Sequence record: PZ445417.1
Length of the DNA stretch: 44,550 bases
DNA from: a phage
Strand: one strand, 5' to 3'
Part shown: in pieces, positions 9,369-41,835 of the stretch
Layout: every line of letters starts with the position of its first letter
Numbering within the stretch: position 1 is the first letter of the stretch
The notes under the pieces: generated by a model
What the model saw: only the letters and a program-made list of their open reading frames with translations
Told to the model about the DNA's origin: nothing
Databases searched by the model: none
Program-made: the position numbers and the translations under genes

Positions 9369-10094
9369 ATGGGTTATCAACTTCCTAACGGGTCCAGCGT
9401 CCAGATTGGGTCCGTACTGGGCAGCGGCATCGCTGTTACGGCAGCTACCAACGCCGCCGCGTCTATCTCTGATCTTACGCAAGGTTGCGTTATCACCTGC
9501 GCGGCTTCTCATGGCCTGCAAGTCGGCGATGTGGTAATGTTCACTAAAACTCCGTGGGTCCGTGCGCTGAACCGAGCGTTCATCGTGGGTAAAGTGGATA
9601 CCAACGACGTTACGCTGGCGCGCTTCGACACCTCGGACGTGACCAAATATCCTACCGGCGCGTTTAGTGTAGGCACTCCGGGCGAAGTGGTGAAGGTGTC
9701 GAGCTTTATCGACTTCCCTTTCATTACTAACGTTGCCGTGTCTGGTGGCGACCAGCAGACTACTACCTTCCAGCCGTTGCAGGTGAACACCGCGATCAGT
9801 CTGAACACCACGAAAAACCCGTTGGTACAGACTTACACTTTCACCCACGACGAAGAAGACCCGATCCGCCCAATCCTGGAAGACCTGGACGACACACAGA
9901 AAACCACTGTGATTAAGTTCACTAACCCAGCGGCAGCAAGCGGCAAAGGTGAAATCCGTATTTACCCGGCTAAGGTATCTTTCCAGAAGATTCCGTCCGC
10001 AGAAGTAAACAACGTGGAAACGGTGCAATCCACTCTGACCATGCAGTCTGATATGGTTATCTACCGTAAGGATCTGGTCGAGGCATTGTCTTGA
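9369..10094 (+). CDS. major tail (tube) protein
   Basis: 241 aa, CAGGAG RBS. Followed by a strong terminator and then the chaperone gene with a frameshift site, which is the usual major tail / chaperone / tape measure order. Confidence 0.65.
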   Translation: MGYQLPNGSSVQIGSVLGSGIAVTAATNAAASISDLTQGCVITCAASHGLQVGDVVMFTKTPWVRALNRAFIVGKVDTNDVTLARFDTSDVTKYPTGAFSVGTPGEVVKVSSFIDFPFITNVAVSGGDQQTTTFQPLQVNTAISLNTTKNPLVQTYTFTHDEEDPIRPILEDLDDTQKTTVIKFTNPAAASGKGEIRIYPAKVSFQKIPSAEVNNVETVQSTLTMQSDMVIYRKDLVEALS

Positions 10095-10123: not shown

Positions 10124-10149
10124 TGGGGCCAGCACGGCCCCTTTTTTAT
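10124..10149 (+). terminator. rho-independent terminator
   Basis: GGGGCC-agcac-GGCCCC hairpin followed by TTTTTTATT. Confidence 0.7.
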
Positions 10150-10163
10150 TGGAGAATACTACA

Positions 10164-10526
10164 ATGGCTAAAGCACCACTCTTTACACTTGACCCTAAGC
10201 CTACATTTAAGCTGCCGATTGAGATTCCGCGCCCTGGTGAGAACGAGCCGGGTAAGATGACTTTCACCGTTCGCCACCGCCCGATCGACGAATTTTCGCA
10301 AACCATGCAGGACACCGAACGGAAGCTGTCGGAATACGACGACAATGACCCAGACGGCTTTAACGTTATGGTCGAGGCCATCATGCACGTCGCTGAGGGC
10401 TGGAATCTGCCGGACGAATTTAACGCGGAGAACGTCCGCCGCCTGGTGGTCAACTACCCACGCGCGTTCGGTGTGTTCCACACCTCGTACTATCTCGAAC
10501 TGATGGGATTGCGTGAAAAAAACTAA
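10164..10526 (+). CDS. tail assembly chaperone (lambda gpG-like)
   Basis: 120 aa from the ATG at 10164 (GGAGAA RBS). Ends LREKN* with the slippery heptamer A_AAA_AAC spanning the last codons. Confidence 0.65.
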   Translation: MAKAPLFTLDPKPTFKLPIEIPRPGENEPGKMTFTVRHRPIDEFSQTMQDTERKLSEYDDNDPDGFNVMVEAIMHVAEGWNLPDEFNAENVRRLVVNYPRAFGVFHTSYYLELMGLREKN

Positions 10527-10840
10527 TTGAGGCGGCGCGACGCTTTTATGGCCCGCCGCCACCCTCCGAAGATTTAGCCGCGAGTTTATGGGGTGCGGCC
10601 CCCGAAGATGTTTGTCCGCCTGTTGCGCTATGGCCCGACAACGCGAAGGTAGTCGCAGTCTTCACAGATTGCTCCACGCAATGGCGCACCGGATTTGGTG
10701 GCGCATACGGCATCGACTACGGCGTGTTGGAGTGGTTATTTAAGATGCACGGCATCGAAAACGAGCAGCGCGCGTTTAAAGATATTAAGCTAATGGAACG
10801 AATCGCGCTTGATGAAATGGCGCAGCAGAACCCCGCATAA
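10517..10840 (+). CDS. gpT-like extension of the tail chaperone, reached by -1 frameshift
   Basis: The -1 frame is open for 107 codons from the slippery site A_AAA_AAC (10517-10523) to the TAA at 10838-10840, with no in-frame ATG start; checked codon by codon. Confidence 0.55.
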   Translation, partial: KKLIEAARRFYGPPPPSEDLAASLWGAAPEDVCPPVALWPDNAKVVAVFTDCSTQWRTGFGGAYGIDYGVLEWLFKMHGIENEQRAFKDIKLMERIALDEMAQQNPA

Positions 10841-10842
10841 TG

Positions 10843-11157
10843 AAGCGGGGCAGATCGGGACGTCCCGTTTTGTCCCGCCTTTGCAAAACTGCATACCTAC
10901 TCACTTCCACTGCATAATCTAAAAGCGGGACAAGCGGGACGTCCCGATCTGCCCCGCCCTGTAAATGTGCATACCTATTCATATTTCATGCATAAACCAA
11001 ACGGGACAGAAAGCGGGACAAACATGGGGCGGGACAAAGCGGGACAGCACCCCGTCCCCGCCAGTGCTGCCGCGGGTTTTAGCCGATCGGGACAGGCGGG
11101 ACAAAGCCCAGTCTTTCAGACTAGACGGGGGTCAGTGGCCCCCCTCGTCTGAGACTG
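10843..11157. repeat. non-coding repeat element, copy 1 (inverted repeats, CGGGACA iterons, conserved long hairpin)
   Basis: Inverted arms GCGGGGCAGATCGGGACGTCCCG (10845-10867) and CGGGACGTCCCGATCTGCCCCGC (10935-10957); at least 8 CGGGACA copies; imperfect ~19-bp hairpin at 11109-11157. The distal ~160 bp is about 80% identical to 39047-39204. Confidence 0.7.
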
Positions 11158-11225
11158 CATAAGGTTTGTTTTAAAATCGCTGATACAATATCAATCGGCA
11201 ACTGCATAAAAAAGGGGACTGCATA

Positions 11226-13868
11226 ATGGCAGATCAGGCAGCAGGCATCACGCTAAAGGCGGATGTCGCACAAATCAGAACGGCAAATACTGTGCTGGAC
11301 TCCTTCGCACAGAAATCCGAGAACACAGAAAACAAGGTTAAGAAATTAAACGACACCCTCGGCAAATCCAAAAAGGTGACGAGTGACGCCGCGGGTGGAA
11401 TGGAGAAGCTGGCGACTGAATCGCAGCGTGCCGCCGACGGCATGACGAAACAAGAGCGACTTGCCAACCGGTTAGGCATGTCGACCAAAAACCTGGGCTT
11501 TGCCTCGCGTAACGCCGCATTCCAGTTACAGGATATCGCAGTTACGCTTGAGATGGGGATGCCGGTGCACCGCGTCATGCTTCAGCAGTTACCGCAGCTA
11601 ACTGGGGCGTTCGGTGGATTTGGTAACACGCTGCGTTATGTTGCGGGCTTCCTCGGTCCGGTAGGGATCGGCATTGCAGCACTAACGGCAACGTTAGGCG
11701 TAGGAGTGGCGGTTACGTCCCGTGCCGAAAACCAGGTCGCAGCGCTTAACAAGACGCTGGCGCTGTCAGGTAACATTTCCGGCCTCACTGCAAACCAGAT
11801 CCTGGTGCTATCCGAGAACGCCGAGCGCATGGGGGGGTCATTCAGTAAGACGCGTGACACAATCCAGGCACTGGCGGCGGCGGGGGTGAAAGCGGGCGCT
11901 GACTTCGGCGCGCTTGCGAAGGTTGTGAATGACTTCGCGAAGGCGTCTAATCAGCCGATCGCGGACGTGGTGGGGTCTATCGCTAAATTATCCAACGACC
12001 CGGTTGGCGGACTGCGCGCACTGGCGGACCAGTACCACGTCGTTACCGAGGCGCAGATCCAGCAGGTGCAATCGCTTGTAAATATGGGGCGTGAAACGGA
12101 CGCGGTGGCTATGGCTAACAAAACCGCCGCGGCGTCGTTCGCCAGCATGACCAACGATGTCAAGGCCAACATGGGTACGCTTGAGCGGTCGATGAACGTC
12201 GTCACATCGGCAGCTAAATCAATGTGGGATGCCATCCTGGATGTTGGGCGCGCGCAGTCCTCGAATGAGTCCGAGATGAAAGCGCGTGAATCCTTGCAGC
12301 GCATGACCACGGCGTACTATGCCGAGATGAAGGCGGTAAACGCTGCCGGTGGGGTGATGACCGAAGCGCAGAAAGCGCGTATTAACATGCTTTACAGCGA
12401 ACTGGTCGCCCAGGAAAAGGTAGTGGCGTCGCTCACCCTGCGCAACCGTGCCGAGCGAGACAGCGCCAGCGCCGCGGATGAAGCAGCAAAGGCGAACGAG
12501 GAGGCAAACCGCACCGCCCGCGACCGCGCCGCGTTTGAGAAGGAGTACGCGACCAACGCAAAGCGGCGATCCGACGAGATCGCCCGCCTCAATTTGCTGA
12601 ATAAGCGCGGTGTTATTAACGAGAAAGAACTAGCCGAGGCGGTGAAGCAGGTCAACGAACGTTACAAAGACCCCGCCCAGAAGAAGGCCGCCGCTGTTCG
12701 AGTCGATGCCGGGCTGAAAATGCTGGAAGTCGCGCGAAGCGAATTAGCCCAGCTTCGTGAGTCTGGAAAGCAGATCGAAGCCAACGCATCGACGCAGACC
12801 CGCACGCAACGCGCGCAAGCGGCCCTTAACAAGCTGGTGGCGGATCATGAACAGTTAATCGCGGCGAGCAAAGAAAGGGCACTGACGGCGGCAGAAAAGC
12901 AGCAAATGGCGGAGTTCGAGTCGGTTAAATCTGTACGCGAGCAGATCGTAGAAGAAGCCAAATTGCTGGACGCGAAAGAGAAGCAGATCAAGGCACACGC
13001 CCAGGTCGAGGCTTTCATCAAGAACCAGAACGCCGAGCTAAAAGCCACCGCGGCGGGCTATGCGCTTTCTACTCGCGAAGCGGCTAACCTGCGCGAAGAG
13101 TTGCAGCTAATTGACCGTCTTCAGCGTGCCGGTGCTAACGATACTGATATTGACAAGGCGGTGTCTAAGCTGCGTGAGGTTCAGGAAGCACAGACCGGTG
13201 CTAACGCCTCATTATGGGATGGATTCAGTCGCGGGCTTCGCGATAGTGTGGATGAAATGGGTAACGGATACACGCAGATGGCGTCACTCACAAAATTCAC
13301 GTTCGGCGCTATGCAGGACACGATGAACGAGTTTTTCGAGACTGGCAAGCTGAACGCAAAGGATATGGTTAAGTCCATCCTGAGCGAATTAATCAAGCTG
13401 GCTACCTCGCAGGCGTTCAAGTCCATCGTTAGCGCTTTCGGTGGCGACGGCGGCAAAAACGGATTGTTCGGCGCTATCTTCTCTGGCCTCACTAAGAATG
13501 CAGACGGCGGAGCGTACACCGGAGGCAATCTCGCGGCCTATTCGGGGCAAGTGGTAAGCCAGCCCACTTTTTTCAGTTATGGCGTCCAGGCGTTCGCTAA
13601 GGGCGCAGGATTGATGGGGGAGGCGGGACCCGAGGCCATCATGCCGCTTAAGCGCGGGCCAGACGGTAAACTAGGCGTCGCCGCTGCCGGTGGGGTCGGT
13701 GGGATGATTGTAACGACCAACGTTAACATGGGGACCGGTAAGACGGATACCAGTGTTAGCGGACCGGACCCGCGCACCGCGCAGGCGTTCGGAAAGCAAA
13801 TCACCGAGTCGGTCAAGGCCGAGATCGTGAAGGCGACGAAACCGGGTGGTGTACTTTACAAACGATGA
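11226..13868 (+). CDS. tail tape measure protein
   Basis: 880 aa, AAGGGGA RBS. Long Ala/Gln/Glu-rich helical protein with a Gly-rich C-terminal part, located between the chaperone and tail tip genes. Confidence 0.85.
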   Translation: MADQAAGITLKADVAQIRTANTVLDSFAQKSENTENKVKKLNDTLGKSKKVTSDAAGGMEKLATESQRAADGMTKQERLANRLGMSTKNLGFASRNAAFQLQDIAVTLEMGMPVHRVMLQQLPQLTGAFGGFGNTLRYVAGFLGPVGIGIAALTATLGVGVAVTSRAENQVAALNKTLALSGNISGLTANQILVLSENAERMGGSFSKTRDTIQALAAAGVKAGADFGALAKVVNDFAKASNQPIADVVGSIAKLSNDPVGGLRALADQYHVVTEAQIQQVQSLVNMGRETDAVAMANKTAAASFASMTNDVKANMGTLERSMNVVTSAAKSMWDAILDVGRAQSSNESEMKARESLQRMTTAYYAEMKAVNAAGGVMTEAQKARINMLYSELVAQEKVVASLTLRNRAERDSASAADEAAKANEEANRTARDRAAFEKEYATNAKRRSDEIARLNLLNKRGVINEKELAEAVKQVNERYKDPAQKKAAAVRVDAGLKMLEVARSELAQLRESGKQIEANASTQTRTQRAQAALNKLVADHEQLIAASKERALTAAEKQQMAEFESVKSVREQIVEEAKLLDAKEKQIKAHAQVEAFIKNQNAELKATAAGYALSTREAANLREELQLIDRLQRAGANDTDIDKAVSKLREVQEAQTGANASLWDGFSRGLRDSVDEMGNGYTQMASLTKFTFGAMQDTMNEFFETGKLNAKDMVKSILSELIKLATSQAFKSIVSAFGGDGGKNGLFGAIFSGLTKNADGGAYTGGNLAAYSGQVVSQPTFFSYGVQAFAKGAGLMGEAGPEAIMPLKRGPDGKLGVAAAGGVGGMIVTTNVNMGTGKTDTSVSGPDPRTAQAFGKQITESVKAEIVKATKPGGVLYKR

Positions 13869-24184: not shown

Positions 24185-24676
24185 TTATTTAAGTGCGCCA
24201 GTCACCAGTGTTTTTTCCATGTTACGGAAATCTTCCTGCGTCATGAGGATTTTAGATCCGTCTTCGCCGGTGAGCACGACCATAGGCTGGACGTCTTGAT
24301 CTGCGATGCCGAAATTAGCGGCTTTGACCGTCTTGCCCGCGGAAGAATGCCAGCCTTTTAGGCTTTCAAATTGTTCTGCCGTTGTATCGATCTGAATCTC
24401 GTCATGCACAGTCATGTAAGACTCGCCAAGCAGGGCGGCATACGCCACCAGATCCACGATGTTATCATCCTGGTGCTTACGGTGCTGGCGCACCAGCTTC
24501 AGGCAGATCAGGAAGGTCCAGGCTTCTTGCTCGGTCAGGTCGCGACCGGTAAGCGCGTTAAACACGGCAGCGATTTGTTTAGCGCTGCGCTCCTCTTTCG
24601 CGTTGTCATAGCCGTTTTCTTTCCCGCGCTGTTCCATAGTGGTGGCGGCGTTTTTGCAGTATTCGTATGCTTTCAT
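24185..24676 (-). CDS. hypothetical protein (163 aa)
   Basis: Preferred start is the ATG at 24676 with an AAAGGA RBS; the alternative is the ATG at 24700. No recognisable motif. Confidence 0.5.
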   Translation of the reverse strand: MKAYEYCKNAATTMEQRGKENGYDNAKEERSAKQIAAVFNALTGRDLTEQEAWTFLICLKLVRQHRKHQDDNIVDLVAYAALLGESYMTVHDEIQIDTTAEQFESLKGWHSSAGKTVKAANFGIADQDVQPMVVLTGEDGSKILMTQEDFRNMEKTLVTGALK

Positions 24677-29106: not shown

Positions 29107-29144
29107 TGTCCCCCAAAAATGGCGGGACAAGCCCGCCATATTGA

Positions 29145-38962: not shown

Positions 38963-39046
38963 ATTTTGGGCGTTTTTAACTGGTCGTATTGGTTGCCGTG
39001 TAGTGTAAATATAATGAATAGTTATGCAATAAAACTGCATAAAGTA

Positions 39047-39204
39047 AGCGGGACAAAAAGCGGGACAAACAAGGGGCGGGACAAAGCGGGACAGCACCCC
39101 TGTCCCGCCCCGGATGACGCGGCCTGGAGAGGAGCGGGACAGCGGGACAGCACCCCAGTCTTTCAGACTAGACGGGGGTCAACGGCCCCCCTCGTCTGAG
39201 ACTG
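39047..39204. repeat. non-coding repeat element, copy 2 (CGGGACA iterons plus conserved hairpin)
   Basis: Six CGGGACA copies, a GCGGGACAG-cacccc-TGTCCCGCC dyad, and a hairpin at 39156-39204 that differs from copy 1 only in its loop. Confidence 0.7.
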
Positions 39205-41302: not shown

Positions 41303-41593
41303 ATGGATAAGCTAAACGAGTGGTTATTTGCCATCGCATGTCTGGCTGGCGGCTTCGTAGGCGCACGCATTCATGGCGAGGCAACGAAGGGGCCGCTAAA
41401 CTTCGTTTTATATATCGTAGTTGGCTTCCTGTGTGCCATATTTGGTGCACCAGCTATCGCCGAGTGGGCGGGCTTATCGGGCGAGCGCACGGTCGCCGGT
41501 TTGGGCTTCGTAACTGCAATCTTCTGGATGCCAATAGCCGCCCGGATCAGGGAGACTATTGCGTCGTTCCGACTTCCGGGGGGCGCAAAATGA
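41303..41593 (+). CDS. putative holin (three transmembrane segments)
   Basis: 96 aa with three hydrophobic segments and a charged C-terminus; lies two genes upstream of the endolysin. Confidence 0.5.
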   Translation: MDKLNEWLFAIACLAGGFVGARIHGEATKGPLNFVLYIVVGFLCAIFGAPAIAEWAGLSGERTVAGLGFVTAIFWMPIAARIRETIASFRLPGGAK

Positions 41594-41835
41594 TTATCTC
41601 CGTCCTGTTGTTTGTTATCATAGGGGCTTCGTCCCTGTTTAACGTGTATGCGCCGTCCGTTCAGGATGGCATTTTAGGCCGGGTGTTATATCTGCTAACG
41701 GCGATGATCTGCGTTATCGGATTGTTGCAAACAGGAGACGTATCTGACACCACCTGGACCGCGTTAATCTGGCTGTTTGCATTGCGCACGCTGCGTAATG
41801 CTGTTTTGAATGGGGTAAAACATGCGATTCAGTGA
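41590..41835 (+). CDS. small membrane protein (81 aa), possible second holin or antiholin
   Basis: ATG overlapping the holin stop (ATGA). Two hydrophobic segments. Overlaps the endolysin start. Confidence 0.45.
   Translation: MIISVLLFVIIGASSLFNVYAPSVQDGILGRVLYLLTAMICVIGLLQTGDVSDTTWTALIWLFALRTLRNAVLNGVKHAIQ

Follow-up and report, generated by a model that had tools for sequence, protein, structure and literature searches.

The overlapping pair of open reading frames situated between the tube and tape-measure genes of a Dhillonvirus phage very probably specifies two products by a programmed -1 ribosomal frameshift of the lambda G/GT type, namely a 120-aa chaperone G and a minor 225-aa GT fusion, as judged from the sequence of the phage and its comparison with relatives. 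The window, i.e., the whole stretch of 44,550 nucleotides in sequence record PZ445417.1, belongs to an HK578/SO-1-like E. coli siphophage of this genus. A nucleotide search with the 2-kb stretch around the site recovered 157 phage records matching at 80-95% identity, nearly all of which are Escherichia/Shigella Dhillonvirus phages (HK578, SO-1, JL1, SSL-2009a and others).

Frameshifting of the G/GT kind belongs to the textbook features of long-tailed phages (PMC5009743), and the ORF map of the window, read alongside the annotations of relatives, places the overlapping pair in the location typical of it, between the tube gene and the tape-measure gene. In order along the plus strand, the gene for the major tail (tube) protein (9369-10094), an ORF whose counterparts in relatives are labelled major tail or tail tube protein, is followed by a terminator-like hairpin (10125-10148), gene G, the T extension in the -1 frame, 385 nt of non-coding DNA and the gene for the 880-aa tape measure protein (11226-13868). 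The latter, identified as an ORF with the corresponding annotation in relatives, is the presumed client of G/GT. The terminator-like hairpin in the tube-G intergenic region, GGGGCC...GGCCCC followed by a T-run, was picked up in a pattern scan as a consensus match. It could attenuate transcription, which would leave the tube protein more abundant than G/GT and the tape measure protein.

Gene G (10164-10526, plus strand) starts with the ATG at 10164 and ends with the TAA at 10524-10526. Its 120-aa product, which results from standard decoding, matches the Pfam family Phage_TAC_4 (PF08748, E 1.4e-23) at full length, with residues 1-120 on positions 1-124 of the 124-position profile, and the PHROGs family phrog_569 (E 1e-40). 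A preliminary description of this DNA had noted that the ORF ends in LREKN* with the heptamer A_AAA_AAC across its last codons, and a direct reading of the sequence confirms this: the final codons are GAA (10515-10517), AAA (10518-10520) and AAC (10521-10523), followed by the TAA, so that the slippery heptamer occupies 10517-10523 on the plus strand in the X_XXY_YYZ phase of the 0 frame. The run of A at the site comprises seven residues (10516-10522). The 0-frame stop (10524-10526, plus strand) abuts the heptamer, an adjacency shared with most relatives (see below), and could act as a “shifty stop” pause element. On the 5' side, a TGA in the -1 frame (10514-10516, plus strand) sets the limit of the region in which a shift would give a long product. 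The overlap of the two frames in the window is thereby confined to 10 nt, and the heptamer is therefore the sole possible junction between them.

Past the TGA, 107 codons of the -1 frame (10517-10837) are free of stops, and the frame closes with a TAA at 10838-10840. It had been described as lacking an in-frame ATG start, and this stands: the first canonical start (ATG/GTG/TTG) encountered in the -1 frame of the window is a GTG lying 69 codons past the heptamer. The size first given for the fusion, ~227 aa, has to be corrected to 225 aa (120 + 105), as codons 1 and 2 of the 107 fall on the heptamer. The T extension proper (10523-10840, plus strand) amounts to 105 codons and the TAA after the shift. 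It matches the Pfam family DUF1799 (PF08809, E 2.8e-21) and the PHROGs family phrog_680. The earlier label “gpT-like” is thus apt with respect to position and presumed role, but not with respect to family, for which Pfam gives DUF1799 and not lambda gpT. In the Pfam scan, neither G nor T matched the lambda gpG/gpT families, and T gave only DUF1799 at E values up to 0.01. A further PHROGs profile, phrog_17368 (213 positions), aligns with G at positions 1-107 and with T at positions 147-212; because it matches both, a family with the two parts in one polypeptide exists. A word-indexed protein search with the G-T fusion as the query returned 3 matches only, and a search of PDB sequences returned no match.

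Comparison of 19 distinct Dhillonvirus sequences bears on the coding status of the T frame. The variable columns are distributed over codon positions 1/2/3 as 20/7/68, the codon differences relative to the window comprise 247 synonymous and 53 nonsynonymous changes, and stops are present in both of the non-T frames in every one of the 19 sequences. Because of this pattern T is, on comparative sequence grounds, a translated protein segment under purifying selection that has no start codon of its own. In a broader set of 106 distinct sequences, 96 show no canonical start up to 10 codons away from the slip site, and the stand-alone DUF1799 ORFs that a library of 1.84 billion proteins contains are 38-150 aa long, with ragged N-termini.

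The conservation of the slip site was assessed in an unbiased sample, in which loci were found via an alignment of the T-domain core only, as opposed to the slip site, and 87 of which contain the complete region. A first scan of viral contigs was left out of the counts, given that its distant loci were reached via EKKLIEAA, a peptide which spans the slip site and hence biases the recovery. An in-phase heptamer is present in all 87 T-core relatives: 86 carry A_AAA_AAC and a single one (locus L066) carries G_GGA_AAC. The site had been proposed to match the conserved G/GT frameshift of tailed phages, and synteny, the PF08748 and PF08809 matches, the purifying selection on T, its lack of a start codon and the in-phase heptamer in 87/87 relatives all agree with this assignment, as does the alignment with the chaperone genes of relatives put forward as a means of checking it. 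In 84 of the 87, AAAAAAC lies directly 5' of the G stop (TGA in 64, TAA in 19 and TAG in 1), and in two others A_AAA_AAC is followed by one extra codon and then TAG. In L066 the sequence reads G_GGA_AAC TAA and the preceding codon is GCG, a coordinated change that preserves the X_XXY_YYZ pattern. In total, the 0-frame stop abuts the heptamer in 85/87 T-core relatives. Among the 106 distinct sequences, the codon immediately 5' of the heptamer is AGA, CGA, GAA, AAA, GTA, GCA or GCG; bases 1 and 2 of this codon are free, and base 3 is always identical to X. Further, the T-frame residue encoded across the 0-frame stop varies among relatives (I, T, S, K, R or E), yet the T-frame codon over the stop always starts with the purine that completes the 0-frame stop, which argues that the position of this stop is itself selected.

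The same A_AAA_AAC and stop are found in more distant phages recovered by tblastn with the whole domain, namely T1, Tlsvirus Devorator and Serratia phage ChibiTotoro (T identity 36-44%), and the site is kept in phase down to ~30% protein identity. Among relatives, the two frames overlap upstream over lengths of 10-307 nt, and the heptamer is therefore their only fixed junction. A homologous chaperone pair in the Webervirus Klebsiella phage vB_KpnS-VAC5 (locus L057, positions 540-570) has a G end reading GCA AAA GTT TAA, with a non-canonical heptamer; this phage may employ single-tRNA slippage on A_AAA_G, or another site.

Downstream of the heptamer there is a candidate stimulatory hairpin (10531-10560, plus strand) with the arms GGCGGCG (10531-10537) and CGCCGCC (10554-10560), which form a 7-bp G/C stem after a 7-nt spacer. 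With a local minimum free energy of -17.1 kcal/mol, it ranks in the top 1.9% for stability when compared with 42-nt windows across the 4 kb around it. Comparison with dinucleotide shuffles gives no signal (z -0.1), and 12.8% of synonymous recodings fold as well or better (p 0.13), as the stem is made up of GCG and CCG, codons common in E. coli. In this phage the hairpin is a candidate only, and codon usage alone could explain it. At the level of the family, comparison of clades points to a probably real element. Hairpins with the same spacer and differing stem sequences are seen in other clades, with 5' and 3' arms GGCGGTTT / AAACCGCC in T1, GCCGCCG / CGGCGGC in the main metagenomic clade, GGCCGTTGAGT / GTTCAGCGGTC in a metagenomic sub-clade and GGCCGCCC / GGGCGGCC in locus L054, and also in ChibiTotoro. 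The hairpin region falls in the top 0.1-4% of stability of its own locus in 13 of 16 clade representatives, and the native hairpin is more stable than 95% or more of the synonymous recodings drawn from the codon usage of the locus itself in 12 of 17. The combined p across the family is ~1e-12 to 1e-13, for representatives that are not independent of each other. In the main metagenomic clade, 93.7% of the cells pair, with some compensatory changes, and a register shifted by 3 pairs equally well on account of GGC repeats. A search against Rfam yielded no frameshift element, its lone match being a sub-threshold miRNA due to the intergenic inverted repeat.

These features can be combined into a more tentative proposal, to which we would give slightly less than even chances, that the Phage_TAC_4/DUF1799 pair carries a family-wide cassette, consisting of A_AAA_AAC, the abutting stop and a hairpin after a 7-nt spacer, in which the RNA structure dictates the sequence of the linker between G and T. 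If so, the cassette would have been preserved over a range that takes in Dhillonvirus, the T1-like phages and a large uncultivated group of proteobacterial phages, and the hairpin would have been rebuilt in each clade from different codons, i.e., those for Ala-Ala/Pro-Pro, Ala-Ala/Gly-Gly or Arg-Ala-Val/Lys-Pro-Pro. As a separate observation, the 3' arm of the hairpin in the window codes for PPPP in T (10553-10564, in the context GPPPPS). Polyproline stalls ribosomes without EF-P, and at this position it would affect only those ribosomes that have already shifted. The equivalent of this tract is PPPP in ChibiTotoro, PP in T1 and GGG in the metagenomic clade.

The sequence of events at the site can be envisaged as follows. 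The majority of ribosomes would read G up to the TAA and release the 120-aa protein. In a minority, the tRNA-Lys on AAA (10518-10520) and the tRNA-Asn on AAC (10521-10523) would slip back by one base and re-pair on AAA AAA, with reading resumed at the CTA that begins at 10523. The pause permitting this slippage is probably provided by the abutting 0-frame stop and the G+C-rich hairpin 7 nt downstream. The resulting GT protein would comprise the Phage_TAC_4 chaperone domain followed by the DUF1799 domain (120 + 105 = 225 aa) and would be made in a small amount relative to G. A_AAA_AAC is far less shift-prone in E. coli than A_AAA_AAG (review PMC5009743); because the heptamer is a weak one in this host, the efficiency here may likewise be low, which would be compatible with a low GT:G ratio. 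By analogy with lambda (PMC5009743), G and the G part of GT would coat the tape-measure protein, the T part would recruit the tail tube protein, and both G and GT would be absent from the virion.

As a pattern in a single genome, the site on its own is weak evidence, since a crude scan for an in-phase heptamer near an ORF end with an open -1 frame gives 5 matches in the window, 4 of them besides the chaperone site; it is the comparative data that lift the site above chance. The probability that a given in-phase 7-mer fits XXXYYYZ is 1/256. One of the additional matches, G_GGG_GGC at 41578 (region 41303-41835), lies close to an ORF end and has a -1 frame that stays open for 85 codons more; it was rejected as a false positive on the basis of relatives, which annotate two separate, adjacent holin genes along with an endolysin there. 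Such cases would favor the view that the heptamer and the open -1 frame of the chaperone gene are likewise fortuitous and that T goes unexpressed. Against it, T is a Pfam domain under purifying selection and the in-phase site is kept in relatives at protein identities as low as ~30%, so that mere coincidence is effectively refuted and can be assigned only a negligible probability. With respect to the exact heptamer, AAAAAAC is under-represented in the window, with 3 copies on both strands against 8.0 expected from dinucleotide-preserving shuffles, which is consistent with slippery runs being avoided other than at the programmed site. The remaining copies, at 24210 (minus strand) and 36493 (plus strand), are out of the X_XXY_YYZ phase of the long ORF around them or are without a long -1 extension.

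Two other explanations would have T expressed by a different route. One is that the RNA polymerase, as opposed to the ribosome, slips at the site, adding an extra A on the A7 run to yield the same long protein with Lys in place of Asn at the junction. The seven consecutive A of the window (10516-10522) are in its favor, and a transcript with one added nucleotide would encode ...REKKLIEAA..., a case that could not be told apart in the DNA. However, efficient transcriptional slippage needs ~8-9 or more identical bases, and the site does not present a conserved homopolymer of such length: the window itself has A7, 83 of the 106 distinct relatives have just A6, and L066 with its G_GGA_AAC is down to three A. 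Moreover, conservation extends to the strict phase of the heptamer, to the last base of the codon before it and to the stop next to it, none of which would be relevant to an RNA polymerase. These points render slippage during transcription highly improbable. The other is that the DUF1799 ORF is a separate gene with its own translation, for instance by termination-reinitiation at the ATT which overlaps the G stop (TAATT). This is the position at which the SO-1 and HK578 records start the gp16 CDS, and stand-alone DUF1799 ORFs are widely predicted by gene callers. Yet the N-termini of those stand-alone ORFs are inconsistent, and the -1 frame of the window offers no ATG/GTG/TTG before the above-mentioned GTG. 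The codon at the ATT position in relatives is variously ATC, ACA, ATT, AGC, ATA, AAA, ACC, AAG, AGG, ACG, GAA or AGA, a diversity from which it follows that there is no conserved near-cognate start. A separate gene would also leave unexplained why the heptamer and its phase are conserved, and is at odds with the existence of the fused family phrog_17368; its probability is about as slight as that of polymerase slippage, if not marginally smaller. A programmed -1 ribosomal frameshift accordingly remains the preferred reading of the locus.

Such a frameshift would resemble that of lambda G/GT in several respects: the location between the tube and tape-measure genes, the combination of a short and a -1-extended product, the lack of an own start for T and the position of the shift at the very end of the upstream ORF. 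The slip heptamer of lambda is G_GGA_AAG, unlike the A_AAA_AAC seen here with its directly following stop. Unlike in lambda, too, G is a Phage_TAC_4 protein and T a DUF1799 domain, with no Pfam match to the lambda families, and a downstream hairpin is apparently conserved in the present family. For the lambda G/GT frameshift, passages of PMC5009743 and PMC5313236 cite Levin, Hendrix & Casjens 1993 and Xu, Hendrix & Duda 2004. The same frameshift motif as that of the window has been described, as a prediction, for gp12/gp13 of the Acinetobacter phage vB_AbaS_Loki (PMC5313236); this phage belongs to another genus and has another host, and the likeness pertains to the motif.

Further parallels are found in the T1-like Drexlerviridae (T1, Stevie, Skenny and Devorator), whose T domains are homologous to that of the window with 36-40% identity by tblastn. 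The announcements of the T1-like phages Stevie and Skenny mention a “conserved translational frameshift”. T1 and Devorator share with the window an identical A_AAA_AAC TAA and a hairpin 7 nt downstream; they differ from it in the stem, as noted above for T1, and their records list two separate ORFs. The E. coli dnaX gene is comparable in its lysine-codon heptamer and in a downstream stem-loop at a distance of 6-7 nt; there, the heptamer is A_AAA_AAG and the shift truncates the protein (PMC5009743). Most of the uncultivated relatives (L019-L150, the metagenomic clade) additionally carry AGGGAG, the same sequence as the SD-like stimulator of dnaX, ~7 nt upstream of the heptamer; its pairing with the anti-SD ranks, as a median, at the 3.5th percentile of the locus. 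In contrast to that clade, no convincing SD-like stimulator was found upstream of the heptamer in the window, nor a comparable one in T1.

With respect to annotation, a joined G-T CDS is present in 0 of the 9 GenBank records that were inspected, and a literature search found no paper describing the frameshift for Dhillonvirus. Hence, the Dhillonvirus site is an unannotated instance of the well-known G/GT frameshift, whose exact motif has already been published for Loki, and what is mildly new about it is confined to the conservation, across the family, of the stop and hairpin context. The understanding of phage tail assembly is left unchanged by it. The main value lies in annotation, as the right GT protein, 225 aa long, is obtained once the frameshift is recognized. 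T is listed as a separate “hypothetical protein”, as a fragment or as a “tail length tape measure protein”, or is absent, in >150 Dhillonvirus genomes and in ~1,100 phage records that contain a DUF1799 ORF. Additionally, the family with its invariant heptamer and stop and its variable hairpin provides a clean comparative set for how A_AAA_AAC, weak in E. coli, is boosted. PHROGs mislabels both phrog_569 (G) and phrog_680 (T) as “tail length tape measure protein”, and this label is attached to the two small ORFs in many phage records, including HK578 gp15.

Finally, T and the tape-measure gene are separated by a 385-nt gap (10841-11225) that is non-coding and rich in repeats. It contains a 26-nt inverted repeat (10845-10870 / 10932-10957), GGGACGTCCC palindromes, a 42-nt direct repeat and the motif GCGGGACAA. 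This motif occurs 9 times in the window against 0.63 copies expected, with 5 copies in 10841-11225, 3 at 39048-39084 and 1 at 29122. The first palindrome of the gap is annotated as a rho-independent terminator in HK578, and the repeats of 10841-11225 and 39020-39160 are named “region A” and “region B” in the SO-1 record. The repeats in these two regions look like arrays of putative sites for a phage DNA-binding protein.
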